A stretch of DNA of 64,000 nt, taken from NCBI GenBank assembly GCA_964399295.1, contig CAYNQD010000001.1, positions 203,944 to 267,943 of the forward strand. Direction: 5' to 3'. The position numbers and the translations under genes are program-made. This document shows positions 35,610 to 60,790 of this stretch, piece by piece. The notes under the pieces were generated by a model, which worked only from the letters and a program-made list of their open reading frames with translations, was not told the DNA's origin and ran no database searches. Within the stretch, counting starts at the first letter, position 1. Each line of letters begins with the position of its first letter. Source of the stretch: an uncultured Candidatus Saccharibacteria bacterium (GTDB lineage: Bacteria > Patescibacteriota > Minisyncoccia > Phycocordibacterales > UBA918).

Positions 35610-35614
35610 GTGGT

Positions 35615-40806: not shown

Positions 40807-40830
40807 TCAAATAAATAAAGGGGAATTGAA

Positions 40831-43120: not shown

Positions 43121-43256
43121 GATAGATAAAACATATTTTAAATCCAATGTATTACTGATGGTTTGGGTTGTTTTGTTAGTTTTGTATGTGTTGGGAAAAT
43201 TTACATGTACAAAATAACTCTTAGATTTTATTTTACTTTTTTATTATCACTCAACT

Positions 43257-44388: not shown

Positions 44389-45360
44389 ATGAAAGTCTCT
44401 GATTTTCTGGAGTGGTTTGAAAAAATATCGCACCTTAGTCGTGGTCAAAAAGAACAGGTCAGGCATTGCTTAAGCGAGGTGAAGCCGCAAGCTGCGGTCG
44501 TGAAATATCTTGAGGATTCTTTTGAAGCGAATTGTCCGGTCTGCCAGGCAGATCGCTTTTATCGTTGGGGACACCAAGCGGGGTTGCAACGTTTTCGCTG
44601 TTGCGCATGCAAGCACACATTCACGGCTATTTCGGGAACCCCTTTGGCTCGTCTGCGGCATAAGGAACAGTGGTTGAATTACAGCGCGGCGTTGATTGAA
44701 GGCTTGACCGTGCGAGCGAGCGCCAAGCAATGCGGAATAGACAAAAATACCAGTTCTCGCTGGCGCCATCGGTTCCTGACTTTGCCGGCGGCGACTAAAG
44801 CCAACCACTTGCATGGGATCATCGAGGCGGATAAGACCTTTTTTCCTTCTTCCTGCAAAGGCCAACGCCATCTGAATCGTCCACCGCGTAAACGCGGCAA
44901 GCAAATCCATGCACGTGGCACAGGCAAAGACCAGGTGCCGGTGTTGGTAGTACGCGACCGCTCTGGTGCAACAGCGGATTTCATATTGAATGCGCTTGAT
45001 AAAAAGACAATTGAGCCTCCTTTGCGGGCTATTCTGGCGAAGGATGCCATTTTCTGTAGTGATGGCGCTGCCGTCTACCGGTCTGTGGCTCATAGCCTCG
45101 GAATTACCCATCGCCCCGTCAATCTCTCTGCTGGGATTCGAGTCATTGCTGGCGTTTACCATATCCAGAATGTTAATGCCTACGACAGCCGACTTAAACA
45201 ATGGATGAAAAGATTTCATGGGGTCGCGACCAAATACTTGGCAAATTATCTGGGCTGGCGTAGATGGTTGGAACGTTGGGGCGAGCACAACTCGCCAATC
45301 GTTGCGCTCCAGGTCGCTCTCGGGAGAGAAAATCAGTTTCAACTATTAACGCAGATATAG
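44389..45360 (+). CDS. IS1595-family transposase (N-terminal zinc-ribbon plus DDE_Tnp_IS1595)
   Basis: CPVCQ…C.C zinc ribbon, ~320-aa length, DDE-domain layout; GC ~52%. Confidence 0.7.
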   Translation: MKVSDFLEWFEKISHLSRGQKEQVRHCLSEVKPQAAVVKYLEDSFEANCPVCQADRFYRWGHQAGLQRFRCCACKHTFTAISGTPLARLRHKEQWLNYSAALIEGLTVRASAKQCGIDKNTSSRWRHRFLTLPAATKANHLHGIIEADKTFFPSSCKGQRHLNRPPRKRGKQIHARGTGKDQVPVLVVRDRSGATADFILNALDKKTIEPPLRAILAKDAIFCSDGAAVYRSVAHSLGITHRPVNLSAGIRVIAGVYHIQNVNAYDSRLKQWMKRFHGVATKYLANYLGWRRWLERWGEHNSPIVALQVALGRENQFQLLTQI

Positions 45361-45480
45361 CCACAGTCTTGTCTTCGCAAACATTGATGTGGCGAATTGT
45401 TATAAAGAGGTGTTCGATTTACATTGCTTGAGTATTTGTTATTGTCAAATATAAAGAGTGATGTTAGGCTAACATGCTAT

Positions 45481-45897
45481 ATGCTATTAAAAAATTTATC
45501 AATTAAAAAGAAATTATTACTAGTAGCCACCATCACTTTATTAGCCCTTTCAGCTTTAGTTGCTAATGTTTTAATACCGTACAATATCAGTGAATGTGAA
45601 CTGGCGCAGTTGGTGTTTATCCAGTACGCAGGAAATAACGATGGTCACGAAAGTGTTGAAGATCTAATCGACGATGGAATCATCTACTATGGTACTAGGG
45701 GTCCTCACGGAATCTTTGACTTTAGTAAGACTTACAGACTAGGTATCGTAGAGCGTTGGAGAGGTAAGGCAAAGGGGAAATACCTTGAATATGACCTCAC
45801 TAGAACAGGTAACATGACTGGTTTTAGAAAAATGACAGTATCCCTTGAAGAAATAGAACACGGAAAAAGAGAGCTAAAAAAAATTGTTTGCCCCTAG
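45481..45897 (+). CDS. Small TM-anchored protein co-transcribed with the giant RTX gene. The ORF track starts at TTG 45424
   Basis: MLLKNLSIKKKLLLVATITLLALSALVANVL N-terminal helix; stop is 9 nt before the SD of the next gene. Confidence 0.45.
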   Translation: MLLKNLSIKKKLLLVATITLLALSALVANVLIPYNISECELAQLVFIQYAGNNDGHESVEDLIDDGIIYYGTRGPHGIFDFSKTYRLGIVERWRGKAKGKYLEYDLTRTGNMTGFRKMTVSLEEIEHGKRELKKIVCP

Positions 45898-45906
45898 GAG
45901 GAATAG

Positions 45907-48900
45907 ATGGTTACTAGAATCACTTCAGGTAGTTTAAATGTTTCTGAATTTACTCCAGAAACAATCGTTAGTTTATATTTGTATGGCACGAAGACACCCC
46001 CGCAAAATCTATATGACCGAATAAAACCAGAGAGTTTCTTAAGCAACTTAACTACTCTTAAAGACGAACAAGGTAATTTTGTTGCCAATGTTGTAAATAT
46101 GGCCGTTGACGGACAAGCGTATTTGGACAACGGAGCGGGACGGTTTGCTACACCTGCCGAGTTTGAATTAGTCAAAATATTCTTTGAGGGGTTTAATAAC
46201 TTCTTTTTTAACTTAGATCCTGGCTCGTATACCTATGACCAACTAAACGACAAGGTAACATTTTTTACTCAACTCACTGGTGGTCATGATAATCGTCTCG
46301 TCATTGAGCAGTTAGGTAGAAATGACGGCAAAGATAATGGTGTAGATAGGCCTTTTATTTTTAATAATACAAGTTTTACTCTCCAAACAAATCAAAATGC
46401 AGCTCAGGAATTAAGATTTGTTGTTACCCCAGCAGGCGAAAGATATATAGAAAACGTTGCTATTCGCACTTTTGATGATAATTTTGATTTTGTAGGGGGA
46501 AGTTTTGCTTCAGTTATATTTAACGCGGCAGAAGCAGGAAAATATGATCCTTACAGAATTGGACATCGGGTAGAATTTGATTACAACAACAATAATTTAA
46601 CAGTTGACCCTAAATACACACTTAACGATTATAACCAGCATCTTCAATTTATCGCGGATACTTCGAAGCAAGTGGCAACTAATAGTGATAGTGATAAACT
46701 TAGAGAAAGGCTTGAAGCAAAAGAAATTTTGTTATACGAAAAATCAGGGTATAGCATTGTTTATGGTACGTATGAATCTCAACAACTACATGCTGTTACA
46801 GAATTACTCTCACTATTTAGTAAACCAAGTCTTATCCTTGCCGGAGAAGGTGCTGATAAAGTTACCGGAGGATCGAAGAGTGATCGTCTTTATGGACATG
46901 AAGGTAACGATGATCTTTTTGGTCTTGATGAAGCTGACTATCTTTTTGGTGGTTCAGGTGACGATGAACTTGATGGCGGTCCAGGCAATGATTATCTTTT
47001 TGGTGACGTTTCGTCAGAAAATTTTCTAGGTGCAGAAGAAGTTAAATTTACTTCCGGTAACGACACTCTTGATGGTGGCGCTGGCAATGATATTCTTGAT
47101 GGCGGTCCAGGCAATGATACTTACAAATTCACCAATGGATTATTCGGCGGATCATACGGTAATGACACCATCATAGGTGGCTCTGGAAATGTTGATCGTA
47201 ATGACGTAATTGAAATAAACGGTACAATTTTCTCTGGCAATCCCACTAAAACTCAAAATAACAATGAATACAGCCTAAATAGCAAGACTATTCAGGTGCT
47301 TAGTGGAGATGTTACAACTGAGGCCACCATTAAAATTATTGATGGTTCCAATTCTATTGAAGTTCGAGGCTTTACTACTGGTGATTATGGTATTAATTTC
47401 CTAGATACAACAACTTTACGTCCAGAACGTGATTTCTACACTGGAACAACGAGTAACGGTCTTCTGTTTCTCAATTGGTTTCGTGAGGGGGATCTTTCAT
47501 ACTCGATTGATGTTTTAAACGATGGGACGGTGTTGCGACCTGCCGGTGCTGGCTTCCAAGATGCCGTTCTGACGATTCCTGCAAACTTGAATTTTGTTCA
47601 ATCAGGTGGTGTTGATTTAAGAGGGCTTCGGGGTTCACAGGAAGACGTCCTTGTTGAGGTTAAGTATTCAGTCAGTCCAGCGAATAGTCCTATCGTCGAC
47701 CTGGTAACCTTTACAACGGACACTGTCAGATACTTATTTATCGGAGACGGTGTCGATAATCGCGGCGGGCAAGCTTTTGGTGATCCACACTTAATCACAT
47801 TCGATAACGTTAGCTATGACTTTCAAGCAGCTGGTGATTTTATCCTTACTCGTGCCACAAGCGGGCCTGATTATGAAGTACAAGCCCGGTTTTCAGCTTT
47901 TTCATCAGCAGTATCGGTAACTACCGCTATGGCCACCAAGGTCGATGGAATAGCTGTATCGATACAAATCGATGGTGATACAGGTGATTTGTTGATTGAT
48001 GGCAGTAGTGTGAATATCGCTAATGGTGGTTCAGTAGCTGTTGGTGGAGGCTCCATTAGTCGAAACGGTAGAAAAATTGAAATTGATCATGGTAATGGCG
48101 ATAAAACCTCAGTGGATGTTTTTAGCAGTTTCATGAATGTCACTCCGTCACCTTCTCTTGCGAGAATTCCAGGCTCGTTGGAAGGACTGCTTGGCGATGC
48201 TGACGGCAATCCTGGTGATGATTTTCAATTAGCAGATGGCACTGTACTTCCCACACCGTTACCAATCAATACTCTCTATGGTAGTTATGCTGCTAGTTGG
48301 CTGGTAGCCGATAGCGAATCTATCCTTCCTGGTGCTCGTGAGTTGTTTGATGCACCTGATAGAATCATCACTATAGATAGCTTGCCACAATCTTTGCGAC
48401 AAGCCGCTGAGGCCGCTGTTGCCGCAGCTGGAATTACTAATCCGATTTTGCGTGAGGCTGCAATTTTAGACTTTGCCTTAACTGGGAATATAGAATTTAT
48501 TGAAGCAGCCAAGCTTACAAACGACATTTTTGATCCGATTATCGATACAGTAGCTGTTGATCCGATCAATAATCCGGTAGTGATTCTAACGACTAACCAG
48601 ATTGAACTTGATGAAGCAAACCCTGCCCACCAGACCGCTACACTCACCGTCTCACGTGGTTCAACTACAGGTGATTTAACAATTAACTATAATGTCATTG
48701 GAGTCGGTGCTTATCCTGCCAATACAGATGATTTTTCAGGAAATACTTCCGGTACAGTGGTCATTAATGATGGTGAGGACACTGCAACATTTACCGTTGG
48801 AATAGTTGATGATCTATTAGATGAAGAATCAGAACAATTTGATGTAGCTATTGCGTTAGATGGTACTCAAGCTTCTGCCTATGAGTTATTAGTATCTTCT

Positions 48901-49296
48901 GTGCGTATGACTATTTTGGATGATGACGATGGGCCGGTCTTAAACGAAGTAATTGGAACAACCTCCAGTGATTATCTTGTTGGTACAGGTAATGCAGATA
49001 TTATTCACAGTCTGGGTGGTAGTTATGACAGATCATTTGGTGGACTCGGGGCCGATATTTTTGCCTTTGGCTCTGAAGCCTTGAATGGTATTCGCGAACG
49101 CGATGTCATTATGGACTATGAAGTTGGTGTTGATGCTATTTTGCTTGAAGACGGTGCTTCAGTTGGTTCTATTCGTCAGACCTCAACCGGTGCAGTGATT
49201 TTCCTCGAAGGTGATCTTGATGCGATTTATGTACAAGGCGAAGGTGTTCTGCCTGGTAATCTCACATTCTTGCCTGAAAGTCTGTTATTAGCCTGA
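45907..49296 (+). CDS. Giant (1129-aa) RTX-type calcium-binding repeat protein with VWD and Calx-beta-like domains (putative T1SS-secreted adhesin)
   Basis: Strong SD aggagg; nonapeptide repeats GGSGDDELDGGPGNDYLFG and GGAGNDILDGGPGNDTY; GDPHLITFDNVSYDFQAAGDF VWD hallmark; DDFSGNTSGTVVINDGEDTATFTVGIVDD Calx-beta-like; no N-terminal signal peptide. Confidence 0.7.
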   Translation: MVTRITSGSLNVSEFTPETIVSLYLYGTKTPPQNLYDRIKPESFLSNLTTLKDEQGNFVANVVNMAVDGQAYLDNGAGRFATPAEFELVKIFFEGFNNFFFNLDPGSYTYDQLNDKVTFFTQLTGGHDNRLVIEQLGRNDGKDNGVDRPFIFNNTSFTLQTNQNAAQELRFVVTPAGERYIENVAIRTFDDNFDFVGGSFASVIFNAAEAGKYDPYRIGHRVEFDYNNNNLTVDPKYTLNDYNQHLQFIADTSKQVATNSDSDKLRERLEAKEILLYEKSGYSIVYGTYESQQLHAVTELLSLFSKPSLILAGEGADKVTGGSKSDRLYGHEGNDDLFGLDEADYLFGGSGDDELDGGPGNDYLFGDVSSENFLGAEEVKFTSGNDTLDGGAGNDILDGGPGNDTYKFTNGLFGGSYGNDTIIGGSGNVDRNDVIEINGTIFSGNPTKTQNNNEYSLNSKTIQVLSGDVTTEATIKIIDGSNSIEVRGFTTGDYGINFLDTTTLRPERDFYTGTTSNGLLFLNWFREGDLSYSIDVLNDGTVLRPAGAGFQDAVLTIPANLNFVQSGGVDLRGLRGSQEDVLVEVKYSVSPANSPIVDLVTFTTDTVRYLFIGDGVDNRGGQAFGDPHLITFDNVSYDFQAAGDFILTRATSGPDYEVQARFSAFSSAVSVTTAMATKVDGIAVSIQIDGDTGDLLIDGSSVNIANGGSVAVGGGSISRNGRKIEIDHGNGDKTSVDVFSSFMNVTPSPSLARIPGSLEGLLGDADGNPGDDFQLADGTVLPTPLPINTLYGSYAASWLVADSESILPGARELFDAPDRIITIDSLPQSLRQAAEAAVAAAGITNPILREAAILDFALTGNIEFIEAAKLTNDIFDPIIDTVAVDPINNPVVILTTNQIELDEANPAHQTATLTVSRGSTTGDLTINYNVIGVGAYPANTDDFSGNTSGTVVINDGEDTATFTVGIVDDLLDEESEQFDVAIALDGTQASAYELLVSSVRMTILDDDDGPVLNEVIGTTSSDYLVGTGNADIIHSLGGSYDRSFGGLGADIFAFGSEALNGIRERDVIMDYEVGVDAILLEDGASVGSIRQTSTGAVIFLEGDLDAIYVQGEGVLPGNLTFLPESLLLA

Positions 49297-49374
49297 TTTT
49301 AATTAACTACCCAATATATCTGATACAACCTATTTTTTGCCGTGGCAAAATTAACGCTATAAGGAATTCCAATA

Positions 49375-49971
49375 ATGAGAAAAATACTATGCAGTGGATT
49401 TCTGGTTCTTACCTTGATTTTCACAACTTCTATAACAGCCAATGCCACCACTCTTGGCCTAACCACTCAAGACCCATCACTGGACTCCAGCTTTGCTTTC
49501 GTTGATTATTTTGAGTTTAATTCCAGTGGTGATTTATCGTCTTTTGGCGGAATCATTGACTCATCAAGCGGTATTTCCCCGTTTGGATTGACAGAATTTT
49601 CATTTGGCATCGGTTTTTCTTTGTCTGATCCTACCAATACGGCGGCTGGTGGTTTTGATGTATTTGATGGCAATGGTTTGTTTTTGAGTGGTGACCTCCT
49701 TGCCGTTGGTTATACTGAAAACGTGATTGAGTTCCAGTTTGATCAATTGACCGGTTCAGCCGCTGGTAGTTTTGGTTCATCCGCTCTTATGCTAATCAGT
49801 TTTGTTGATCAGCTCGGTACCAATCCCTTTGCAGCATTAGTTGATGGTACTTTTTATGATGCTTCAGTTAAGATAGCCAGCGTGGTACCGCTATCTGAAC
49901 CCACTATCCTACCCATGTTTGCTTTGGCCTTATTTTTAATAAGTCTGGTTCGATTGAAACACTATAAATAG
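49375..49971 (+). CDS. Secreted Gly/Ser/Asp-rich protein with a PEP-CTERM-like C-terminal anchor
   Basis: Signal peptide; C-terminus VPLSEPTILPMFALALFLISLVRLKHYK resembles the PEP motif followed by a TM helix and a basic tail. Confidence 0.4.
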   Translation: MRKILCSGFLVLTLIFTTSITANATTLGLTTQDPSLDSSFAFVDYFEFNSSGDLSSFGGIIDSSSGISPFGLTEFSFGIGFSLSDPTNTAAGGFDVFDGNGLFLSGDLLAVGYTENVIEFQFDQLTGSAAGSFGSSALMLISFVDQLGTNPFAALVDGTFYDASVKIASVVPLSEPTILPMFALALFLISLVRLKHYK

Positions 49972-50099
49972 TATTTGAGACAATCATTAATCAAATCAAA
50001 CAACCAAGGGAATTGGTTGTTTGATTATGACTGCTGGTAGTGTTTCCATTTAACCAAAACTACCATCCAATTTGCTTATTAGAGTACTAAAACCCTACT

Positions 50100-50840
50100 T
50101 CAATCACACCCCCACAAAACCACCCCATCAACAACAGACTGAACAGAATTAGGCTTGGTGGCATTAAGTATGCTAAATAAATCATCAACAACCAACCCAG
50201 TTGCTTCTGGTTCATCGGCTTTGATAAATCGGTAATGAGTGTTGCATTCACGATCTTTCCATATTTGCGGGTATGTGCGTACCGTATAACCTTCGTTTGT
50301 GAGTAATTCGGCTACGTAGGTAAATTTCCGAGCAAGGTCAGCATTCCACTCCACGAGCTTTAAAGTATGGAGGCTTCCCAATAGGGCGAGAACAGGTGAT
50401 TTTCCAACTTGACCTGCCAATTCTTTAGCCATCCAAGCGTCACGATCGATTCCTAATTTAATATCAGCATCAATGGCTATTAATTTAAAACAGTCATTTT
50501 GCCTTTGCAATTCTACTAAATTCTCTATTAAAACTCGAAAATCAGGGTGATCAATTGGTGGGGCAATTTCAATATCAGCCACTTTGGCTTGATCTTGAAT
50601 TAATTGATCAATCGTGGATTGTTGATTGCTGGCAATTTCTAAAGCCACTGTCAGGCAATCGTGCTGTTGCCGGTAATCAGTGATAATTGACTGAAAAAAT
50701 TGGAAAGATTCTGGTCGTTTGTGCGTTTCACCGATAATAGTGATGCTATCGGGCTTAATCCCTTGAAGAATAAAGTCATGACTGCCTTTAGCAGAGGTAT
50801 CTAAACCAAATAGCAGAGCTAGGAAAATGAGATAGCGCAT
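50100..50840 (-). CDS. Secreted ChaN/TIKI/TraB-superfamily (haem-binding-like) protein
   Basis: Signal peptide; ITIIGETHKRPES resembles the ChaN GE.H motif. Confidence 0.4.
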   Translation of the reverse strand: MRYLIFLALLFGLDTSAKGSHDFILQGIKPDSITIIGETHKRPESFQFFQSIITDYRQQHDCLTVALEIASNQQSTIDQLIQDQAKVADIEIAPPIDHPDFRVLIENLVELQRQNDCFKLIAIDADIKLGIDRDAWMAKELAGQVGKSPVLALLGSLHTLKLVEWNADLARKFTYVAELLTNEGYTVRTYPQIWKDRECNTHYRFIKADEPEATGLVVDDLFSILNATKPNSVQSVVDGVVLWGCD

Positions 50841-50918
50841 TAGATTGGCCAGTTACCCTGTACTTCTATGAGATCAAGTAACTCTTATTAATCCCGCTCT
50901 GCCAAATAATTCTCAAAA

Positions 50919-51809
50919 CTAATTGACTAGCCTCTCTTCAAGCTTATTTAACTCAACTTTTAGGTTTTCAAGAGTAGCTTCTAACTTATTGATTTCTGCT
51001 TTCAGCGCTTCAATATTTTTGGCCACCTCCGGATCGGTCGGTATACCAATCTCTTCATGTTCCCAGGCTAACGCTACCAGTCTAGGATGATCAATATATG
51101 GATTGCGGTTGCCTTGTTTTTCTTCAATCCGGTTGTTTCTTTCTTTTTCCGTTGCATCAACCGGATCAGCTTTGTGCCACTTAAATAAAGTTTCGCGATC
51201 GGCTATTTTAGAAATATCGCCAGCCGCGTTAGGATACATGGTATAGAAATAATATACGGCTCTAGCCAAATTTCCCTTGTGGTCTTCACGGGGTTCAAAT
51301 ACTTCATTCCCTATTGTTTCACTGTATGAATCAATTTCATCCGTGGGAATGCTATTTCTTATGATTTTTAACCCCGGATCACCGGCAGTTATCCATTTTT
51401 CGGTTAAATGATCATCAATTTCTCCGAAAGGCAGGTTACTTCTTGTTGAATTAACATCCTTATGAGTCGGAAATAAATGATGTAGGTCTGATTTCATGGG
51501 AAATTTTTCATTAAACCAGGACTGCGGTATGGTATGTTCGGCATTAATTGGATCAAGAAAGGTAGTGTCCTTTGCTTTTTGCTTGAACCCAGTATAAACA
51601 CCTACCACCATACCATCAGCATTTTTATCAATAAAGCTATACATCGCTCTTCTGGCTTTGTCATAGCCAAGATCATTATGTTTGCCTTCATGCCAGTTTT
51701 CTTTCAACCATACTCGCAGGGCTTGGCCGGATAAATCATCTGGTGGCAATGGCCCAGCAAAACTAAAAACGCTAAATAGGATAAATGCAACGGCGACAAA
51801 GATTTTCAT
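50919..51809 (-). CDS. Secreted Endonuclease I-family DNase with a C-terminal coiled coil
   Basis: AEHTIPQSWF, DLHHLFPT, VNSTRSNLPF, FEPREDHKGNLARAVYYF match the EndA/Endonuclease_1 blocks. Confidence 0.7.
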   Translation of the reverse strand: MKIFVAVAFILFSVFSFAGPLPPDDLSGQALRVWLKENWHEGKHNDLGYDKARRAMYSFIDKNADGMVVGVYTGFKQKAKDTTFLDPINAEHTIPQSWFNEKFPMKSDLHHLFPTHKDVNSTRSNLPFGEIDDHLTEKWITAGDPGLKIIRNSIPTDEIDSYSETIGNEVFEPREDHKGNLARAVYYFYTMYPNAAGDISKIADRETLFKWHKADPVDATEKERNNRIEEKQGNRNPYIDHPRLVALAWEHEEIGIPTDPEVAKNIEALKAEINKLEATLENLKVELNKLEERLVN

Positions 51810-51939
51810 AATAATCTCCTTGGCGTGTGGATTATTAAAATCAAATGGTAGTTGACGCTTTAAGAACTAAACGTGCAGGCTAATAATAATACAATTAGGA
51901 ATTTTGTGGCTAAGAAGATAGCAGAGATAGTTTGACTGT

Positions 51940-51992
51940 TAAGGGTAGTCAAACAAGTGTAGCGGCCAAGGGCATTTGCCCTTGGCCGCTAT
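51940..51992. promoter_or_regulatory. Two adjacent perfect palindromes upstream of the second recombinase
   Basis: gtttgactgttaagggtagtcaaac, and agcggccaagggca-tt-tgcccttggccgct (14-bp arms). Confidence 0.45.
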
Positions 51993-52094
51993 AATGAAAA
52001 AACTTCAATTTTAACTGTTCTTCTTATAACGATTCTGAACTAAAATACTTTAGAGGTTTTATTCCTATTATAATATTCATTTATTCAGTATCTT

Positions 52095-54146
52095 ATGGCT
52101 GTTAGTGAGGTGGTGATGAATACAAAAAACGAACCAAAACGGGTCGGTATCTGGGTTCGCGTATCAACGGAAGATCAGGTACGGGGTGAAAGTCCCGAAA
52201 CCCATGAACGTCGCGCCCGCTTATACGCTGAAGCTAAAGGTTGGAACGTGGTGGAAGTCTATCGCCTAGATGCTGTCTCCGGTAAAACCGTTAAAGATAC
52301 CCCAGAAGCCAAACGGATGCTTATTGATGTGCAAGATGGCCATATCACTGGGTTAATCTTCTCCAAACTGGCCCGTTTGGCCCGTAACACCAAAGAACTA
52401 CTGGAATTCTCAGAAATCTTCCGCGACTGTGGAGCTGATCTCATTTCACTGGCCGAAAGCATCGATACCTCTACCCCCGCTGGTCGACTCTTCTATACGA
52501 TGATTGCCGCGATGGCGCAGTGGGAACGCGAAGAAATCTCAGAAAGAGTGGCGGCAGCGGTACCGATCCGAGCTAAAGCTGGTCAACCAACTGGTGGGCA
52601 AGCGCCGTTTGGTTATGAGTGGAGAGATAAGAAGCTGTATATTGATCCAGCCGAAGCCAAAGTCCGTAAATTGATCTTTGAATTGTTTCGTGAACACAAA
52701 CGCAAAAAATTAGTAGCTAGACTATTAAACGATCAGGGTTATCGTACCCGAAACGGTGGTAAATTCTCTGACACCACCGTTGACCGACTGCTCCGTGATC
52801 CAATTGCGATGGGTACCCGCAGGGCCAACTATACTTGTACCAAAGACAACAACAAAGCCTGGAAGCTAAAACCAGAATCAGAGTGGGTTTATTTAAAGGT
52901 AGAACCCATTGTTTCAGAAGAACTATGGCAGGAATGCAATCAATTCTTGGATGAGCAAAGAAGCAAGTTAAAGCGGGTTACTAAATCAGCTGTTTATCTG
53001 TTTTCTGGCTTAGCGTACTGTATTTGTGGGAAGAAGATGTATGTGCCGTCCAATAGCCCAAAATACACCTGCAAAGAGTGTCGCAACAAAATACCGGTTG
53101 ATGATTTAGAAGCGGTATTTCATGAACAAATCAAGAATTTCTTGGTATCAGAAAAAGAGATAGTTAATCACTTAGAACAGGCTAATGTTGAGGTGAAAGA
53201 AAAGGTTGAACTCCTGGGGGTATTAGAAAAGGAAACAAATAAGCTTAATCAGGAAATTGATAAGCTGTATGACCTCTACCAGTCCAGTATGATTGATAAA
53301 CATGGATTTGGGCTGAAATACAAGCCACTAGCTGAACGGCGAGAACAGTTAGACGAACAAATCCCTAAACTGCAAGCTGAGATTGATATTATGAAAATAT
53401 CGCAATTGTCTCAGGAAGTAGCTATTGCCGAAGCACGTGATTTATATGGTCGCTGGCCCTCACTTCCCTTTGCAGAAAAAAGGCGGATCGTGGAAGCGAT
53501 TGTGGAGAAGATAACGATTGGTAACGGTGAGATTGAAATCAATCTTTTCTATACTCCCCCAGCCTCAGAGATACCGCAACACAACTTAAATAACGGAGGA
53601 ATAACTAATATTTATTCCTCCTTAAATCATGGTAATTTGGCAACAGATGCTCATAGACGCGTCGCCTTTTTGCCATTTGTCCGTACAAAGCTTAAATCAT
53701 TGATTCCTAAGTCATATGATTTTGAGCCTAAGGCTCTGGGTGAGCATCTACTGAAGCGGAGGTTATTTCTTGAGTTGTCACAAGCTGAGGTTGGCAAGCT
53801 ATTCAATGTTTGCTCCTTCACGGTTGGTAACTGGGAAAAAGGACATTCAGAACCAAAAATATTCCAGATACCGATTCTAATCGAATTTCTTGGTTACGAT
53901 CCGATTAATCACCACTCTAATTCAATTGCTGAATTATTGCTGGCTAAACGGAAGAAATTAGGCTGGACTCAGAAAGTGGCTGCTAAAAATCTGGGCGTTG
54001 ATCCGTGTACTTGGTCGAGCTGGGAATGTGGTAGAGCAATCAAGACTTATAAACATCGGCGGTTGGTGGCTGAGTTTTTAAATATGGATGAGGGGGTTGT
54101 TGATGTGATAATGAAATTGCAGTGGAATGAGCTACATGAACGGTGA
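52095..54146 (+). CDS. Large serine recombinase with a C-terminal extension carrying two XRE-type HTH modules
   Basis: VGIWVRVSTEDQ…SPETH catalytic domain, recombinase domain, Cys4 zinc ribbon (CICGKK…CKEC), coiled coil, then LSQAEVGKLFNVCSFTVGNWEKG and LGWTQKVAAKNLGVDPCTWSSWE. Confidence 0.75.
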   Translation: MAVSEVVMNTKNEPKRVGIWVRVSTEDQVRGESPETHERRARLYAEAKGWNVVEVYRLDAVSGKTVKDTPEAKRMLIDVQDGHITGLIFSKLARLARNTKELLEFSEIFRDCGADLISLAESIDTSTPAGRLFYTMIAAMAQWEREEISERVAAAVPIRAKAGQPTGGQAPFGYEWRDKKLYIDPAEAKVRKLIFELFREHKRKKLVARLLNDQGYRTRNGGKFSDTTVDRLLRDPIAMGTRRANYTCTKDNNKAWKLKPESEWVYLKVEPIVSEELWQECNQFLDEQRSKLKRVTKSAVYLFSGLAYCICGKKMYVPSNSPKYTCKECRNKIPVDDLEAVFHEQIKNFLVSEKEIVNHLEQANVEVKEKVELLGVLEKETNKLNQEIDKLYDLYQSSMIDKHGFGLKYKPLAERREQLDEQIPKLQAEIDIMKISQLSQEVAIAEARDLYGRWPSLPFAEKRRIVEAIVEKITIGNGEIEINLFYTPPASEIPQHNLNNGGITNIYSSLNHGNLATDAHRRVAFLPFVRTKLKSLIPKSYDFEPKALGEHLLKRRLFLELSQAEVGKLFNVCSFTVGNWEKGHSEPKIFQIPILIEFLGYDPINHHSNSIAELLLAKRKKLGWTQKVAAKNLGVDPCTWSSWECGRAIKTYKHRRLVAEFLNMDEGVVDVIMKLQWNELHER

Positions 54147-54352
54147 AATGATTTTTTCCCATTTGCTGGAATTGAGATGTGTAACTAGTTCGATAAATAC
54201 ATTGTTTTTTCAAATCACTTTTCATTCATGATAATTTTAAAGTTGGTTAATTAGAGCTTTACAGATGAAATCATTGAGGTGTAAATTGACAAATCTAAGA
54301 ATTAAATAAAAAATTCGGAAAAATTCATAATAGAAACGATGGAGATTGAATA

Positions 54353-55099
54353 ATGCCACCAGAGCATCGATTACATGTGCTGGCAATTTCAGCGACGTTG
54401 ATTGCTTATTATTGGTTTATGAAAATTATTTTATCTCCTGGATTTCATTGGTTACCCCAATGGAGTAGTTTCTTCATTATGTTTTTTTCGTCTTATGGTG
54501 TGTTTAGATTTTTTCACTGGACAATAGCATTTCTATTGAATAAAGTGCGATTGCTTAAACAACTTTTTCTTGGGAAATATTACATTGAAGGTACTTGGGT
54601 TGGTTATTATTATGGGGAAGACGGGAAAATATACTATGTAGTGGAAATTATTGACCAGGAAGTAGGTGCTCCACTACATATTAGTGGTCATTCATTCGCG
54701 AATAACAACAAACTCTATGCGACCTGGCGGTCTGTTACAGTAAGTTTCTGGGTGGACTGGCATAAACTAATTTATGCATATAATTGTGTAATTCTTGAAC
54801 CATCTAAGATAATTGATGGAATAACAGTTTTCAGCTTTCATTGTATAAATGAGGATTGTTTCCATACTAAAAAATTTCGGAGTCAAGAATTTATTAAAAT
54901 AAATCTGATTAAAAGCCTGTTTTGTAATAATCCTAGCAGAATTATTGGGTACGCAACTAACACAGATTCAGGAAAACGGCTTGAACTTTATGAGCAAAAA
55001 TTGAGTAACGACGTTTTAATAGCTGAAAACGCTTTACTAGGAGCAAAAACATTCCATGATTCAGTTGTGAAATCACTTAACAAGACTAGTGTTCAATAG
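54353..55099 (+). CDS. AT-rich hypothetical protein with an N-terminal 2-TM region and a globular C-terminal domain
   Basis: Hydrophobic helices in residues 8–70; ~33% GC versus ~47% for its neighbours. Confidence 0.4.
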   Translation: MPPEHRLHVLAISATLIAYYWFMKIILSPGFHWLPQWSSFFIMFFSSYGVFRFFHWTIAFLLNKVRLLKQLFLGKYYIEGTWVGYYYGEDGKIYYVVEIIDQEVGAPLHISGHSFANNNKLYATWRSVTVSFWVDWHKLIYAYNCVILEPSKIIDGITVFSFHCINEDCFHTKKFRSQEFIKINLIKSLFCNNPSRIIGYATNTDSGKRLELYEQKLSNDVLIAENALLGAKTFHDSVVKSLNKTSVQ

Positions 55100-55228
55100 C
55101 AAAAATAAGATAAATTATTTTGGATTATAACCATTTGTTTTCAAAAATATACTGTTCAAAACAGTATATATTGAATTAATACAATTAAACACTAGCAACA
55201 ATTAATACATAAAAGCAAAGACCCTACT

Positions 55229-57949
55229 TCACCTTTCCTTCCCCTTCTGCAACGACCGCGCAATAACCTCAGAAACCGCCTTTCTTCTAGCAGCCGCATC
55301 ATCTGAGTCAGTAACTTGCTGGACGGTACGGACTTTGTATCCCCGTACCACTTGCTCGGTCGGGGTGAATTTGCCTAGACTATCGAGGAATTCAATGATC
55401 TGTTCAGAGGTTATGTACCGAACCCGTCCTTGATCTTTGAGGTCAAGATTTTCTTCCACGAATTTGGCCAGTTTCTTCACATGCCGTTCTGTTCCGCCAA
55501 TCAATACAACCTCTGAATAACCAGCAGCAAAGCATTTTTCAAGGCCACCCAGTTCCCAATCTTTGGTGGTGGTGACTGAAACTTGGCAAGCCACGCGTAA
55601 TTTATCTCGTACCAGTGATATATCTACCCGTCCAGCGCCATCCAGAATCGTTTCCTCAATAGTGGCACGGAAACCGCGCTCTTCAGCTAATTGTTTGATC
55701 AATTGCTGCAAGTATTTATGTTGTCGTCCACCACGGCCAGGCTCTGGAATATCCTTTGGTGGTGTCGATTTGGCTCTTTTCTTCGGTGGCGTGGTTTCGA
55801 TTGATGGGATCGGTTCAGCAGCAGTTGGTATTTCCGGTTCAACTGGAATCTCTACGGTTTGCGGTGTTTCAGGTGACACTGTTTCTTTCTTGGTTGTCTG
55901 TTTAGCTGGTTTTGGCTCAGGAAAAGCGATTTCTTCAGGAATTAGCGGTGGTTCGCTATATAGCTCCCGATTGCGATCAATTAGAGCTTCATATTGGAAA
56001 GCGGTGATTCTCGGTTGACTCTCCACAAACCCCAAGGGAATAGATACAGCCAGTGCTTTAGCAGTATAGTTTTTGACGTAACAGGCAAATTCGGTTTGCT
56101 CCTTCCCTTTTCTCATACCAAGCAAAAAATCAGCGTCAGTACGGTATTCTGAATCTAAGATACCGGCATCTTTGGCACTCAAGCCACCAGCAAACTTGAT
56201 GGTGGTGGAAGCTAATACACTAGCCCTGAGACCACCAGACAGCTGATCGAGATTTTGATGCGCAAATACTAAGCCTACCCGGTATTTTCTAGCTTGGTTT
56301 AGTAGATGTGAGATATTGTCGTCAAAATAGTCTTGGGCTTCATCGATATAAACAAAGGCGGAGCGTCGCTTATGTGGTGGCATGGCGGCACGCTGAATGG
56401 AAGCCTGGGCAATTAAAGCAATAAAGAAACGTCCAAAAATGGCTGCACCATCTTGTCCCAGCAAATCCTTGGCCGTATTGATAAGAATGATCTTGCCTTG
56501 ATTTAATAATTCAAAGATATCAATTCTGTTTCGAGTATGAGAAAACATCCGTTCCAAGGATGAATTGGATAGTACTCCCCACAGACGGGTTAATATCTGC
56601 TTCTTGGTTTCACTAAACTTTCTATCAAAGAATTGGGTAGCAAAGAAGCTACGAGCGGTGCCGGTCAGTTTCTCCATATAGGGCCGGAACCGTTCACTGT
56701 TTTCCATTAATTCTCGTAGCGTATGGATATTGGCGTCCGGTATTTCCAAAAGTAGCCGAGCTAAATAACGGAAAATCAGTCCTTGGCGTTGGGTTAATTC
56801 GGCTCCGAGTAGCGCCCCAAAGAAGTATTCATACAGTTCAATGGTGGCATTCAGTATCTTTTCTTTATCTACCGGCGCATAACCACTTAACCGATCTTGG
56901 TTAAAGTCAAACATATTGAGACAAACCGGATACTCAATATCATTCGGATCAACTATCACCAAGCGTTCAGCCAGGGCTGGATCGCTAAAGTATCCCAGTT
57001 TAACTATGGTGTTGATCAAATCACCCTGGCTATCAATCACCACAATCGAACGACCATCTTCTTGCGAGCGCACAATGTCATGATGAATCAGAAACTGCAT
57101 TAATTGGGTTTTGCCGTGACCGGTACCACCGACGATATGAGTATGTTCAAAGCGGGCTGGGAAAGGAATGGCAAACGGTAGCTGGCGGTATAGCAGTGAC
57201 TGGAATGGCGTGTCACCCAAATAAGTATCAACCAATACCGCTGGTTCATTAATTCGGCTTTCGGTGGGTAGGATTACCTTCGGTGGCCGGTTGAATTTGG
57301 CGTCTGGTGGATGGCCGGAAGCTCTTAAGATATTCTGATCAAAGACTTCCCGCTGTCTTCCAAAAACCTGGGCTTCAACAACGTCTGCGTCATAGAAAGT
57401 CACCATGAGGCGCTGGATGACTTCCGGCAGGTTGTCGCACAAATCATAGGCATGTGCCTTCGGAAACACCACTGAATCATCATCAGCCAACCCGTTTTCA
57501 TCAACATCAATAAAGGCTGATTCGGGAAAATATTCAAGCATCCCTTTAAAAAGCCAGACCAGCTTTTCCCGCCAAATTGATAGCAAACGATCCGGTGAAT
57601 TGAGAAAGTGTTTATGGCGTTTCAGGGTGGTACGGAGTCGTATCCCCTCTTCAATGGTGAGGTTTTTGATCTCGGTGTCATTGGGTAAATCTCCAATCAT
57701 CGAATCTTCATACAGCAATTGTTCGATGGTGTAATACAAAGCGCCACCGAGTGGTACTCCAGGCAGTGTGCCGTGCCGTTCGCAAGCATCAGCAATTATA
57801 TCCACGATAAAACTGCTGATTTCATCTTGGTTATTAAGGGGGTGATGTATACGCTGTGTGCGTTTAAGCTCATGCAGAAGAGCCAGCGTTTCTGCCTCTT
57901 CTTTCTTTTTCGGTGAAGGCAGAATCCAATTAAGAAAATTAGATGACAC
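55229..57949 (-). CDS. FtsK/HerA/TraG-superfamily P-loop ATPase (906 aa) with an N-terminal domain, a Pro/Glu-rich linker and a C-terminal possibly nuclease-like domain
   Basis: Walker A VGGTGHGKT, Walker B FVYIDEAQDY, T4CP/TraG-D_C-like AHQNLDQL; C-terminal block DGAGRVDISL…ACQVS. Confidence 0.55.
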   Translation of the reverse strand: MSSNFLNWILPSPKKKEEAETLALLHELKRTQRIHHPLNNQDEISSFIVDIIADACERHGTLPGVPLGGALYYTIEQLLYEDSMIGDLPNDTEIKNLTIEEGIRLRTTLKRHKHFLNSPDRLLSIWREKLVWLFKGMLEYFPESAFIDVDENGLADDDSVVFPKAHAYDLCDNLPEVIQRLMVTFYDADVVEAQVFGRQREVFDQNILRASGHPPDAKFNRPPKVILPTESRINEPAVLVDTYLGDTPFQSLLYRQLPFAIPFPARFEHTHIVGGTGHGKTQLMQFLIHHDIVRSQEDGRSIVVIDSQGDLINTIVKLGYFSDPALAERLVIVDPNDIEYPVCLNMFDFNQDRLSGYAPVDKEKILNATIELYEYFFGALLGAELTQRQGLIFRYLARLLLEIPDANIHTLRELMENSERFRPYMEKLTGTARSFFATQFFDRKFSETKKQILTRLWGVLSNSSLERMFSHTRNRIDIFELLNQGKIILINTAKDLLGQDGAAIFGRFFIALIAQASIQRAAMPPHKRRSAFVYIDEAQDYFDDNISHLLNQARKYRVGLVFAHQNLDQLSGGLRASVLASTTIKFAGGLSAKDAGILDSEYRTDADFLLGMRKGKEQTEFACYVKNYTAKALAVSIPLGFVESQPRITAFQYEALIDRNRELYSEPPLIPEEIAFPEPKPAKQTTKKETVSPETPQTVEIPVEPEIPTAAEPIPSIETTPPKKRAKSTPPKDIPEPGRGGRQHKYLQQLIKQLAEERGFRATIEETILDGAGRVDISLVRDKLRVACQVSVTTTKDWELGGLEKCFAAGYSEVVLIGGTERHVKKLAKFVEENLDLKDQGRVRYITSEQIIEFLDSLGKFTPTEQVVRGYKVRTVQQVTDSDDAAARRKAVSEVIARSLQKGKER

Positions 57950-58330
57950 TTAATTTATCTCAATAACTTCCTCTCCCCCGAAAGTACTGGCAGCACCAAG
58001 TACATTATGAAAGGTGTGGGCCGCTTCTTTGATTTGTTCTTCAACCGCGATCATTTCCACGATATCTTTGCATTCTACCGTCTTTCCCTTTTCCAGATCG
58101 TTGACGGAGATAGTGAGATTAATCATTTTGAAAGCCACACGAGAAGCCAGCCCGATAAGACCACTGCCTGGATCAACAATCTTGGCTCGTTCATACAGCA
58201 TAGTATCGCCAAGCTTGTATTTCTTGATGTTGGTTTTTTCTTCATCAGTTAGCTCCGCTCTAACTGACACCGTGAAGATTATCTTGCCCATCATGCCGGT
58301 CTTTTGATCCCGACGCAACAACAGCTTCAT
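57950..58330 (-). CDS. 126-aa hypothetical protein sandwiched between the two ATPases
   Basis: Stop and start abut the neighbours (58330/58401 and 57950/57949); no known domain. Confidence 0.4.
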   Translation of the reverse strand: MKLLLRRDQKTGMMGKIIFTVSVRAELTDEEKTNIKKYKLGDTMLYERAKIVDPGSGLIGLASRVAFKMINLTISVNDLEKGKTVECKDIVEMIAVEEQIKEAAHTFHNVLGAASTFGGEEVIEIN

Positions 58331-58400
58331 CGCTACCTCCTTGAATGTATGAGATAAGTAGCTAAAGTATATATATTTTATGGTAAGTCGGGAAGAAAAT

Positions 58401-59594
58401 TTAACAATTGAAACTACCTAAATCATGCGGATGGATTGTGGTGGCACTAAATGGTCGGCTGGGTGCGCCGTCTATCATGAGTTTTAGGTAGATTCCACGG
58501 TTTGGTAGATTGATAAGGTCGGTGGTGTTGAAAACTGGTTGGAATTCCCTAGCTATGAGTGGCGCATCCTCTGGCCCCAGTCGAAATGAAATGAGAGTGC
58601 CAGCATTGGCTAATACGGCGTGTCGCACGTCTGATTCCAGTTGATACAGGTGCTGATTGGCTAAAACTAAGCCGATACGGTATTTACGCAGTTCTGAGAC
58701 CATATTGGCGATGGAAAGTGTGGTGAAGCTCTGGAATTCATCAATATAGATCAGGAAATTACGTCTTTCAGTTTCTGGTATATCTCCACGGCTCATAGCC
58801 GCTAGACCTAAGGTAGTGACTAAAATCGCTCCAAACAATGAAGCACTGTCTTCTCCTAAGCGACCTTTGGCTAAATTCACAATCAGTATCTTCCCTTCGT
58901 CCATAATGGTACGAAATTGCAGATTGACCGGAGCAGTGGTGAAAATCCGTCGTAGCTTTGGATCGGCCAGAAATGCCCCAACTTTGTTTTGTATGGGTGC
59001 GATCATTTCCTGACGGTAGCGGGGGTTATAGGCAGCGAATTCTTCTGTCCAGAAATGACGGACTTGTTCGTTTTTAACTTTGGCAATGACAGTCTGACGA
59101 TAGGTTTTATCAGCAATCATCCGCAGGATATCGGGCAGTTTAGCGTCACCAGCTTCAATCAAGGCGTAGAGGGTATTTCTGAGTATATGCTCCATGCGTA
59201 CACCCCAAGCTTCAGTCCAGAGTTTTTTGAAGGCTTCCATCAGGCCAGAGACGGCTAGTGGTATACGGGATGAGTGTACCTGGCGGAGTGGGTTATACCC
59301 GTATGGTTGGTGGATATCAGGGACGTTGATATAGACCAGATTATTTCTTCGCCTTTCTGGAACGTTGGCTACCAGTCGTTCGGCTAAGTCACCATGCGGA
59401 TCAATGACGCAAAGACCGCGACCGCTGTGGATGTCTTGCAGAGCTAGGGTTTCTAAAAGAGTAGTCTTCCCTGCTCCAGTACGGCCAATTACATAGATAT
59501 GGGAAAAGCGATCATCGAGTTTGATGCCGAAGGTGCGATGGGGATGGCGGGCGTTGGTGTGGGCGAGGTATGAAATGGATTGATTTGAATACAC
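58401..59594 (-). CDS. FtsK/HerA/TraG-superfamily P-loop ATPase (397 aa; a bare ATPase domain with no TM segment)
   Basis: Walker A IGRTGAGKT, VIDPHGD, Walker B LIYIDEFQSF, LANQHLYQL; paralogous to the core of the 906-aa protein. Confidence 0.55.
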   Translation of the reverse strand: MYSNQSISYLAHTNARHPHRTFGIKLDDRFSHIYVIGRTGAGKTTLLETLALQDIHSGRGLCVIDPHGDLAERLVANVPERRRNNLVYINVPDIHQPYGYNPLRQVHSSRIPLAVSGLMEAFKKLWTEAWGVRMEHILRNTLYALIEAGDAKLPDILRMIADKTYRQTVIAKVKNEQVRHFWTEEFAAYNPRYRQEMIAPIQNKVGAFLADPKLRRIFTTAPVNLQFRTIMDEGKILIVNLAKGRLGEDSASLFGAILVTTLGLAAMSRGDIPETERRNFLIYIDEFQSFTTLSIANMVSELRKYRIGLVLANQHLYQLESDVRHAVLANAGTLISFRLGPEDAPLIAREFQPVFNTTDLINLPNRGIYLKLMIDGAPSRPFSATTIHPHDLGSFNC

Positions 59595-59782
59595 CTAGGC
59601 ATAGTAAATTATGCACATATTGAAAACATGATGTGGATAGTTGCTGAAATATCTTACATCTCTTCACATTCACGATTAAAACATTAAATGTTAGTAAGAA
59701 GTTTTCAATGGGAGACATTTCTGTAAATAGTATCAATAATCCGTTGAGAACAAAATATTTAAATAAAAGAGACAGTGCTATT

Positions 59783-60220
59783 CTAAGGTTTAGTGTAAAT
59801 TTCCGGTAACAACTCGCTAGCTTTTTTCTTTATTATATCTCCATTCTTATTTAGCAGAATAACCTCTAAATCAGGTGTATGCTCGGCCATAATCTGTCGA
59901 CAATTTCCGCATGGTGATACTATTTTAGGTTCGCAGCTATTATCGCCATTCCAAAAAACAGAAACGATTTTATCAAACTGAGTTTCCTGTTTATAAAGGG
60001 CATTTGAAAGCGCTATTGGCTCAGCACATATGTCAAATCCATCGTTATCCAGATGTAGACTACTATAAACACTACCGCCACAGTAAAGAACACATGCGAC
60101 GTGATGTTTATTCTTAACATAGCGTTTCTTTATTAGATCAAATGCTTGTTTTATGACGAATTCATCGTGAACTAACTGTTCTGAAGAACTCAGTTTGTAT
60201 TCATAGCTTTTCATAGCCAA
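59783..60220 (-). CDS. Cytidine/deoxycytidylate-deaminase-fold protein (Cys-type CDA / blasticidin-S deaminase-like)
   Basis: CAEP…SPCGNCRQ zinc-ligand motifs. Confidence 0.6.
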   Translation of the reverse strand: MAMKSYEYKLSSSEQLVHDEFVIKQAFDLIKKRYVKNKHHVACVLYCGGSVYSSLHLDNDGFDICAEPIALSNALYKQETQFDKIVSVFWNGDNSCEPKIVSPCGNCRQIMAEHTPDLEVILLNKNGDIIKKKASELLPEIYTKP

Positions 60221-60731
60221 ATTTTTTTAACTCATCTTCAATATCTGTATAACCGCGTCCTGCTAGTAGGCCTCCGGCAATAAATTTTTCTTGTGTTACA
60301 TCCGCTAAACATATACCAGGCGGAATAAATTCTTCCATTTCTTCTTTAGTTAAAAATTCGAAATCTAATAGAGCAAACCCGCGAAGCGATTCTTCAAATA
60401 TGTCTAATTCTGCTTCTTTACCATCAAAGTTAAGAAAATAACGGGTTTTATAAATTGCTCTATCTGAAGCTTTTGATAACTCTATAAATTCGGTTTCAGT
60501 AAGAGGTATTGTCATTTCGGTATGTGAAGAAGCGTCATTGGTGTTTATAGGCGTTTTTTTTGTAAATTCAAATTTATCAGCCTTACGCCTTAATCTGATT
60601 CGTGGATGCTTATTTAAATCAGCTGGAATATAAATATCGATCATTCTAGTACTAGCTGCTTTTTCTAAACCTTTTGGTAAAGCCCTTAATAGAAATGTTC
60701 TTTCGTACTCAATGTTTTTTATGTTTGACAT
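60201..60731 (-). CDS. CYTH-domain (triphosphate tunnel metalloenzyme) protein
   Basis: N-terminal EYERTFLL matches the CYTH E.E.K/R.FLL signature. Confidence 0.55.
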   Translation of the reverse strand: MSNIKNIEYERTFLLRALPKGLEKAASTRMIDIYIPADLNKHPRIRLRRKADKFEFTKKTPINTNDASSHTEMTIPLTETEFIELSKASDRAIYKTRYFLNFDGKEAELDIFEESLRGFALLDFEFLTKEEMEEFIPPGICLADVTQEKFIAGGLLAGRGYTDIEDELKKFGYEKL

Positions 60732-60790
60732 TATAGTTTTTAATTTGTTTGGTAATATCTATTATTTATAACTGATTAATTTTTACCACA

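Follow-up and report, generated by a model that had tools for sequence, protein, structure and literature searches.

A putative comM-clade large serine recombinase gene with an attachment site and a dual-HTH tail in its reading frame

Introduction

Mg-chelatase genes (comM, also known as yifB) are the most common target of large serine recombinases (LSRs), accounting for 12.4% of predicted site-specific LSRs (Durrant et al. 2022, PMC10083194). comM is also targeted by Wolbachia sr1WO prophages (PMC9203015), and yifB is a regulated-integrity gene (PMC7192596). Here, we analysed a 64,000-nt stretch of DNA from an uncultured Candidatus Saccharibacteria bacterium (assembly GCA_964399295.1, contig CAYNQD010000001.1, positions 203,944 to 267,943; hereafter the window), which carries an LSR gene that we term LSR2 (52095..54146, plus strand). 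Its open reading frame (ORF) encodes 683 aa, in which a recombinase core is joined in frame, across an attachment site (attP2), to a tail with two helix-turn-helix (HTH) units. We consider it highly probable that LSR2, as a member of the comM-targeting clade, spans its own attP2, that integration into comM splits the gene, and that the copy in the window is unrecombined because its island was placed by another recombinase, LSR1, at a tRNA gene.

LSR2 is of the same enzyme class as the surveyed comM-targeting LSRs, and its tail-less relatives, which are 60–90% identical, lie next to comM split at a constant position. Another shared feature is a 2-nt core with quasi-palindromic half-sites, as is typical of LSRs. 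The surveys cover integrated enzymes of ~400–650 aa, whereas the LSR2 copy described here lies outside comM. We found no mention in these surveys of an attP inside the ORF or of a dual-HTH tail that exists before integration.

Integrase ORFs that span attP are already known, as are the enzyme class and the comM target. In archaeal 'suicidal' tyrosine integrases of the Sulfolobus spindle-shaped virus (SSV) type, the recombination site lies within the integrase ORF (PMC7253208, PMC8371274), and integration changes or splits the integrase gene, as proposed for LSR2. However, the SSV-type enzyme is a tyrosine recombinase whose catalytic gene is broken into two pseudogenes, whereas LSR2 is a serine recombinase whose catalytic core would stay intact. 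Unlike the SSV-type enzymes, LSR2 would shed an accessory DNA-binding module alone, and this module would survive as a gene of its own; the resemblance is one of principle only.

The intP/intX gene of Myxococcus phage Mx8 likewise contains attP within the integrase ORF. Broussard and colleagues are said to have described, in 2013, that attP of cluster G-type mycobacteriophages lies within the repressor gene and that integration removes a degradation tag. This integration-dependent immunity resembles the LSR2 case in that attP lies in coding sequence and the integration state decides the protein isoform, but the gene spanning attP is the repressor in mycobacteriophages and the integrase here, where an XRE module would be uncoupled. 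The presence of two LSRs on an island is also known from SCCmec (CcrA/CcrB) and from multi-LSR elements. The members of a Ccr pair lie side by side and cooperate at a single site, whereas LSR1 and LSR2 are unrelated, 5–20 kb apart and face outward; unlike Ccr, each would have an attP and a target of its own (tRNA gene for LSR1, comM for LSR2), with alternative use of the two. In the literature searched, we found no description of the loss of an accessory dual-HTH domain from a serine integrase upon integration, of stand-alone XRE genes beside split comM as LSR fragments, or of an either/or architecture with two LSRs.

Results and discussion

A recombination site inside the LSR2 reading frame

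Comparisons with related loci (numbered with L; related proteins are numbered with P) place the recombination point within the LSR2 ORF. Homology in blastn to L099, a comM-integrated locus whose LSR2 is 90% identical, stops at window position 53653, and homology to L096, L097 and L123, which carry stand-alone dual-HTH genes, begins at 53652. The overlap of the two breakpoints is the dinucleotide CA at the centre of a palindrome, and it corresponds to TG in the codon for the first Cys of the CPCG motif of comM. We regard these reciprocal breakpoints as the decisive test, by sequence comparison, of the position and core of attP2 (53628..53677). The crossover core CA (53652–53653, codon His520) lies between the recombinase core (aa 1–520) and the tail. 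The site comprises GGCAACAG (53639–53646), a 12-nt spacer (atgctCAtagac) and GCGTCGCC (53659–53666), followed by TTTTTGCCAT, and the form GGCAACGC-N12-GCGTTGCC(TTTTTGCCAT) surrounds the joint in every tailed gene.

The proteins diverge at the same point. With the joint marked by a slash, tail-less homologs end in ...AT..(Q/H) / GFIAA, where GFIAA results from reading the comM motif AAMNP in antisense; tailed homologs agree with them as far as the joint residue and continue as / (G/R)RVAFLP...HTH-HTH. Arm symmetry around the core was above that of all 1440 within-gene control centres in 11 of 15 tailed genes. Outer arm positions vary among loci and are complementary within each locus, for example AAAAGAGCAA/TTGCTCTTTT in L001 and ACATGGCAACGC/GCGTTGCCATGT in L033. 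Moreover, the right (P′) arm keeps its DNA sequence in two different reading frames (HGRVAFLP versus IPALPFCH), and therefore DNA rather than peptide appears to be under selection.

Despite these two frames and compensating indels flanking the site, 16 of the 17 genes with an intact attP read through in frame into the HTH module, and the only exception, L025, is frameshifted upstream of the site. This argues for selection and suggests that the fusion is translated. It also bears on the alternative that attP2 merely lies between an LSR gene and a separate XRE gene, the read-through frame being incidental, the products always separate and the fusion functionless. Such an arrangement would agree with the stand-alone ORFs called in the integrated state, which start with ATG, TTG or GTG at the junction, with the start codon that host comM sequence supplies in L096, and with the P′-encoded linker of ~25 aa at the start of the tail, which is predicted to be disordered in an AlphaFold2 model. 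However, the maintained frame does not fit it, nor does the region between the LSR2 core and the tail, where no stop codon and no Shine-Dalgarno/start arrangement was found, and we judge this alternative unlikely.

Four independent Logan sample assemblies are 100% identical across the core/tail joint, which confirms contiguity over attP2. The ORF runs uninterrupted for 683 codons and its catalytic motifs are conserved; the P arm of the window matches or resembles that of the bona fide integrated element L006, and the fused LSR and tail recur in 16 genome loci of several phyla. All of this contradicts the view that the fusion is artefactual or defunct, either because excised and integrated forms were joined in assembly or because the element is decaying and its site inactive. 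We hold that view to be extremely unlikely, although the arms of attP2 in the window are imperfect, the island carries insertion sequence (IS) elements, and the module is dispensable in a sibling population from which it has been deleted (L090, below).

Related islands beside split comM

LSR2 can be assigned to the clade of LSRs that target comM (Mg-chelatase/YifB): it is 78–90% identical to P0017 and P0001, both of which are tail-less and adjoin comM 5′ fragments. Neighbourhoods were counted in 80 genome loci fetched with the LSR protein, and in 54 of them an opposite-strand comM 5′ fragment ends at or near the 3′ end of the LSR gene. The attB of comM lies at the first Cys codon of the conserved motif AAMNP-CPCG, and its sequence includes ...GTAGCCGCAGGGGCANGGRTTCATCGC.... 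No comM was found near any of the 16 tailed loci. The 64-kb window likewise contains no comM 5′ or 3′ sequence, and the LSR2 copy in it is not comM-integrated, its attP2 being intact.

The reciprocal junction was seen from the side of the tail. A profile search with the tail gave 931 homologs, and the best 120 of these 931 are proteins of 126–292 aa without recombinase domains. All 30 of the 30 tail homologs examined begin at or just upstream of the motif encoded by P′, and in one of them the predicted antisense-CPCG peptide PHGH stands before it. In L096, a comM 3′ fragment (minus strand) is followed by a 160-aa dual-HTH gene, a variable gene, a 922-aa ATPase, a 126-aa gene and a 396-aa ATPase. 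This is the gene order of the window downstream of the joint; the 160-aa protein is 61% identical to the window tail, and the DNA of the ATPase operon is 75% identical to window 55229–59594.

In addition, metagenome contigs were scanned with the exact P′ 18-mer, which gave >120 matches, and 82 of the sites were read. A comM 3′ fragment was joined to the tail at 34 sites and an intact LSR at one, and three were too near a contig end. Because of this ratio (34/82 versus 1/82) and the short stand-alone homologs, we take the fused gene to be a rare, unrecombined state. The preliminary description of this DNA, made from the sequence alone, had called the dual-HTH architecture uncommon, and the unbiased scan bears this out.

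Several of these loci deserve separate mention. L047 has an apparently full-length comM (8328–9929) directly upstream of the comM-integrated LSR, which may be an island-borne replacement for the disrupted gene. Insertions of the opposite orientation in comM, with sense comM 5′ sequence joined to the tail or the LSR joined to sense comM 3′ sequence, occur in L163, L064 and L065; the core position reads TG instead of CA in L163, which is consistent with insertion polarity being set by the central dinucleotide. Seven tail junctions that have no comM 3′ fragment (L040, L106, L122, L149, L152, L156 and L157) carry the motif ...TTCATGCTGATCGC... ~20 nt upstream of the core. TTCATGCTGATCGC resembles the sequence for RFMLIA of comM in sense orientation, and these may be degenerate attP copies or products of tandem accretion.

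Probable placement of the island through LSR1

The island that contains LSR2 is ~31.7 kb long (~32.54 to ~64.23 kb). Its body occupies window positions 32550..64000 and extends to attR1, ~228 nt past the window end. At the left end (~32.54 kb), attL1 is formed by a complete tRNA-Glu gene (32475..32549, plus strand), in the last ~12–16 nt of which homology to L099 begins. The gene of LSR1, the second large serine recombinase of the island (496 aa; 32486..33976, minus strand), reads over the junction into tRNA-Glu, its 3′ end overlapping the tRNA. LSR1 and LSR2 are unrelated by tblastn.

L099 is 80–84% identical at the DNA level to window 32534–35783 (LSR1 and a 434-aa gene), 37679–39640 (an HTH gene, a 174-aa gene and ArdC) and 52068–53653 (LSR2). 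The P1′ side of L099 recurs with 88% identity in L089 (3642–3727), ~143–228 nt past the window end (~64143–64228), where unrelated DNA follows. From this comparison of junctions in L099 and L089, attL1 is read as tRNA joined to P1, attR1 as P1′ joined to the host, and the site in L099 as an intact attP1. The island would have been placed by LSR1 at the 3′ end of tRNA-Glu, and since the whole island is integrated by this route, attP2 in the window would be unused. L099 represents the reciprocal state, in which LSR2 has recombined with comM and attP1 of LSR1 is intact.

This backbone is not peculiar to the window. An LSR1-like gene with a divergent ~434-aa gene lies 5–8 kb upstream of the LSR2-type gene in at least 12 of the 80 loci, which are spread across phyla (L006, L030, L032, L037, L042, L048, L052, L060, L064, L065, L074 and L099); the order is LSR1 and the ~434-aa gene, often ArdC, and then LSR2. 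A tRNA gene adjoins the 3′ end of LSR1 in three of four tailed loci (Glu in the window, His in L030 and Asp in L060) and in none of seven tail-less loci. Integration of tailed islands through LSR1 at tRNA genes appears to be general. A simple model in which the gene is fused only when the element is excised was discarded, as it leaves tailed genes in chromosomes unexplained; integration by LSR1 at the tRNA gene resolves the case of the window.

Proposed splitting of LSR2 and its implications

According to the mechanism we propose, attP2 of the island would recombine with the attB of comM at the first Cys codon of AAMNP-CPCG, and LSR2 would be cut at the CA core. The recombinase core, an LSR of ~520 aa, would stay at one end of the island, its frame running on for a few codons in antisense comM. 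At the other end, by the comM 3′ fragment, the HTH module would come to lie as a small stand-alone gene. A full-length tailed LSR would then be the signature of an unrecombined attP2, and the fusion protein, which is presumably made, would be the native integrating enzyme.

Several observations weigh against this mechanism. In the metagenome scan, the left flank was unclassifiable at 44 of the 82 P′ sites, where many short flanks show comM-like B arms and a few have other contexts. The stand-alone tail of L097 adjoins non-comM sequence. L040, which was dropped as a test case when it proved to be a degenerate attP remnant with a frameshift, has its stand-alone tail after this remnant and no adjacent comM 3′ fragment. 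Both comM junctions of one island were not seen on any single contig. The attP2 of the window is less symmetric than the consensus (8/15, equalled by 20 of the 1440 control centres) and may be decaying, and the frame could be open in part because a constrained DNA site contains no stop codons. As to placement by LSR1, the tailed locus L032 has a visible LSR1 and no tRNA, and 12 tailed loci have no visible LSR1.

A broader proposal is more tentative, and we regard it as possible but somewhat closer to doubtful than to probable. In islands across phyla, integration would act as an isoform switch that turns an LSR–XRE fusion with a regulating or targeting tail into a separate regulator and a truncated integrase. 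In addition, the second LSR and its attP would give the island alternative landing sites, tRNA or comM, each integrase recording the site used.

Our results suggest that "recombinase + HTH_3" fusions, which are rare, and the numerous small XRE regulators found beside broken comM are two states of one gene. LSR2 would be a bacterial serine-recombinase counterpart to the archaeal integrases with attP in their own ORF, and a natural sensor of the integration state. For the development of integrase tools, enzymes taken from integrated copies of the comM clade would be truncated and end in a few antisense-comM residues; natively, integration may be carried out by the tailed form, whose activity or specificity could be different. 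Islands of this family appear to have two integrases directed at alternative targets, and among related islands each of the two states was observed. These points will interest specialists in recombinases and mobile elements.

Recombinase core and dual-HTH tail

LSR2 probably starts at M8 (52116), giving 676 aa, because this codon is preceded at 3 nt by a GAGGTG Shine-Dalgarno sequence and is also where homologs begin. Pfam recognises a Resolvase catalytic domain (PF00239; 52149..52586, aa 19–164, E 4e-32), with an RVS motif at aa 22–24 (RVSTEDQ, aa 22–28), and a Recombinase domain (PF07508; 52647..52955, aa 185–287, E 1.9e-19). A zinc-ribbon motif of the form CICG...CKEC (CxC...CxxC) is present at 53019..53081 (aa 309–329); the Pfam family Zn_ribbon_recom gave no match to LSR2 at E ≤ 0.01 and is recorded for the homolog P0015. 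A coiled-coil region (53130–53429, ~aa 346–445) has weak SMC-like matches at aa 346–441. The earlier designation of the gene as a large serine recombinase is upheld by these domains and the zinc-ribbon motif, the coiled coil that it listed being weakly supported. The catalytic domain, the recombinase domain, the zinc-ribbon motif and the short, quasi-palindromic att site with its 2-nt core mark LSR2 as a predicted serine integrase, and NCBIfam gave sub-threshold similarity to CcrB, CcrC and XisF. Sites used by this class of enzyme are ~40–50 bp in length and lack long direct repeats.

In a protein search, the core (~520 aa) is 60–90% identical across thousands of relatives from Patescibacteria, Acidobacteriota, Proteobacteria, Bacteroidota and others. 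Most relatives are tail-less and ~520 aa long, and a minority of 600–685 aa have HTH Pfam domains. Such conservation of the core is unusually high for a comparison between phyla. Taken at face value, it would imply very recent or very frequent transfer of LSR2 between phyla, which was presumably enabled by the conserved attB in comM.

The tail (53655..54143, aa 521–683) consists of the linker, HTH1 (53736–53888, aa 548–598), HTH2 (53925–54077, aa 611–661) and a terminal helix. That it holds two separate XRE-like HTH units, as first described, is borne out by domain searches and a structural model. NCBIfam assigns unit 1 (aa 546–601) to DicA/HipB-like families (E 5e-11 and 3e-9) and unit 2 (aa 611–664) to MqsA/RstR-like families (E 1e-11 and 8e-8), and Pfam also matches both. 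In a PDB search with a profile of 25 tails, solved XRE domains match both units, with P22 c2 and 434 Cro for unit 1 and HipB, SinR and ImmR for unit 2. An AlphaFold2 model from the alignment of 25 tails (predicted local distance difference test, pLDDT, 85) contains two bundles of 4–5 helices, each above 90, and structure prediction, which had been suggested as a check, thus finds the HTH fold in the tail. In Foldseek, single HTH units of the model superpose on the single-domain XRE proteins P22 c2, C.BclI and HipB, with an rmsd of 1.5–1.7 Å over 58 residues for the P22 c2 repressor.

These matches and the model suggest that the tail belongs to the XRE (Cro/C1) family, with two lambda-repressor-like domains predicted to bind DNA. 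It may serve as an XRE-type DNA-binding module for regulation or tethering that integration uncouples from the enzyme, and our best guess at its role is autoregulation of LSR2 or regulation of backbone genes. Artificial fusions of an integrase and a recombination directionality factor drive excision. A role of this kind seems unlikely for the fused tail, because excision would be counterproductive in the circular state.

Palindromes upstream of LSR2 and the question of a nested element

Two perfect palindromes had been reported immediately upstream of LSR2 and proposed as att or operator sites, or as the boundary of a nested element with the downstream two-transmembrane protein and an ATPase trio. 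Both palindromes are real, and the larger one, which is GC-rich (51960..51991), has perfect arms of 15 nt, not 14, around a 2-nt spacer. The smaller one, GTTTGACT-N9-AGTCAAAC (51930..51954), has 8-nt arms and a 9-nt loop. The stability of the hairpins far exceeds that of shuffled sequences (z of -8.5 and -9.3 for the two palindromes; none of 200 shuffles was as good).

A full version of this proposal holds that the tail is a domain acquired stably in a particular lineage, where it serves to retarget or regulate the LSR, and that the palindromes edge a nested 7.8-kb element (51.9–59.7 kb) as att or operator sites. Tailed LSRs do occur in long chromosomal contigs (16 genome loci), the block from the LSR and tail to the ATPase trio recurs in L001 and L034, the arms of the large palindrome (GCGGCCAAGGG) are identical in the closest relative, L099, and an XRE domain could bind a palindrome. 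However, a search that allowed up to 3 mismatches found no partner or half-site for either palindrome anywhere in the 64-kb window, including the far side of the ATPase operon, where a search had been suggested. No partner was found in Joint Genome Institute (JGI) metagenomes either, with a search pattern too strict to catch the L099 variant. The palindromes are missing upstream of 76 of the 80 homologous LSRs and in L086; the large one is absent in more distant relatives, and the small one is not conserved in L099 or L086. The actual att site and the homology breakpoints (53652/53653) lie inside the ORF and not upstream of it, and the closest cores (78–90% identical) are tail-less and in comM. 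An att or boundary role of the palindromes is contradicted by these data.

The proposed mobile unit fares no better. Among contigs found through the flanking endonuclease I and 176-aa proteins, there was no empty site or precise excision of 51.9–59.7 kb; every one of them matched the window at 100% identity or had lost 46961–59548 through an IS3-mediated deletion, the sole structural variant, with ends unrelated to those of the supposed element. The membrane protein is not conserved in L096, which also speaks against its membership in a nested element. We consider the nested element largely refuted and very unlikely. The 51.9–59.7 kb block is better described as conserved backbone on both sides of attP2 within the ~31.7-kb island, as judged from its sequence, with the LSR2 core on one side of attP2 and the tail and ATPase trio on the other.

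As L099 keeps the arms of the large palindrome and changes its loop and spacing (5 nt versus 2 nt in the window), the palindrome fits a hairpin better than a dimer operator. It can fold as a stable hairpin on either strand and has a weak T tract on the minus strand. It is probably a terminator or insulator, or another hairpin element, upstream of the LSR2 promoter; conceivably, it could be an oriT-like inverted repeat. The small palindrome overlaps a promoter-like site of the divergent endonuclease I gene. DNA homology of the LSR2 module to L099 and L086 begins at 52068, downstream of both palindromes, with a block of 28 nt (52068..52095, plus strand) that is identical in L099 and contains TATAAT at 52069–52074; this block is likely to be the promoter and leader of LSR2. 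Two other candidates for element ends were discarded. The inverted repeat I17 (52049–52067/59852–59870) is attributable to chance, with 79% identity over 19 nt and its right arm within an intact cytidine deaminase gene, and contig ends at 52091 and 59799 were dropped because other contig ends were scattered.

Genes downstream of LSR2 and in the rest of the island

Downstream of LSR2 lies the gene for a 248-aa membrane protein without a family match (TM248; 54353..55099, plus strand), the two-transmembrane protein mentioned above. Its slot is variable, with an unrelated 194-aa gene in L096 and two protein kinases in L001. The three genes that follow are on the minus strand. A 906-aa P-loop ATPase of the HerA/FtsK/VirD4 type (55229..57949), whose N- and C-terminal regions are uncharacterised, is a frequent gene of the island backbone. 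A 126-aa protein (57950..58330), without a family match, is conserved between two ATPase genes in L001, L034 and L096. The third is a 397-aa ATPase resembling type IV coupling proteins (T4CP) and HerA (58401..59594), at whose start codon the homology block with L096 ends exactly. The ATPases have Pfam P-loop and DUF87 domain matches and sub-threshold NCBIfam matches to full T4CP/VirB4 families. Searches of Pfam, PHROGs, PADLOC and the PDB gave nothing significant for the ATPase termini, the 126-aa protein, TM248, the 434-aa protein (p434) or a 491-aa protein (p491). A MADS defence system, whose mad operon comprises eight genes and includes methyltransferase, kinase and specificity subunits, was considered and rejected: both ATPases match the mad8 hidden Markov model alone (PADLOC, E 1e-17 to 1e-19), with no other mad components. 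No relaxase or type IV secretion system gene occurs among the window ORFs scanned; ArdC is present on the island. The ATPase trio is found in about half of the LSR loci and directly after the tail in 1 of 20 attL loci.

In the sibling population L090, the IS3-family element replaces 12.6 kb. Half of a 1129-aa VWD/RTX-like gene, endonuclease I, LSR2, TM248 and the ATPase trio are lost, with 46 nt of the 397-aa ATPase gene left. The far end of L090 carries a 59-nt copy of window 32539–32597, which suggests further rearrangement.

The region between ArdC and LSR2 (39640–52067) holds variable cargo. In the window, this consists of an IS1595-type transposase (44389–45360), the 1129-aa VWD/hemolysin-type protein, a 198-aa protein that has a signal-like segment at its N terminus and a hydrophobic one at its C terminus, a ChaN-like protein and endonuclease I. 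The same slot contains a TIR-domain gene in L099 and endonuclease I, a type I restriction-modification system and SMODS/SLATT genes in L086. A partial duplicate of the ArdC 3′ end (~240 nt, 42873–43111) gives a second blastn match for L099 and L086. The low-GC segment at 59783–64000 (32–38%) is inside the island and is not host flank; it encodes cytidine deaminase, the 176-aa protein, a DegT-type aminotransferase, a GFO/IDH/MocA oxidoreductase and an SDR protein.

Just left of the island are the genes for a PIF1-family helicase with a C-terminal HTH_40 domain and for RmuC (28696–30843 and 24777–25895, both on the minus strand). The helicase ORF and a 652-aa FAD-oxidase ORF share ~400 nt, and the real start of the oxidase is probably further downstream.

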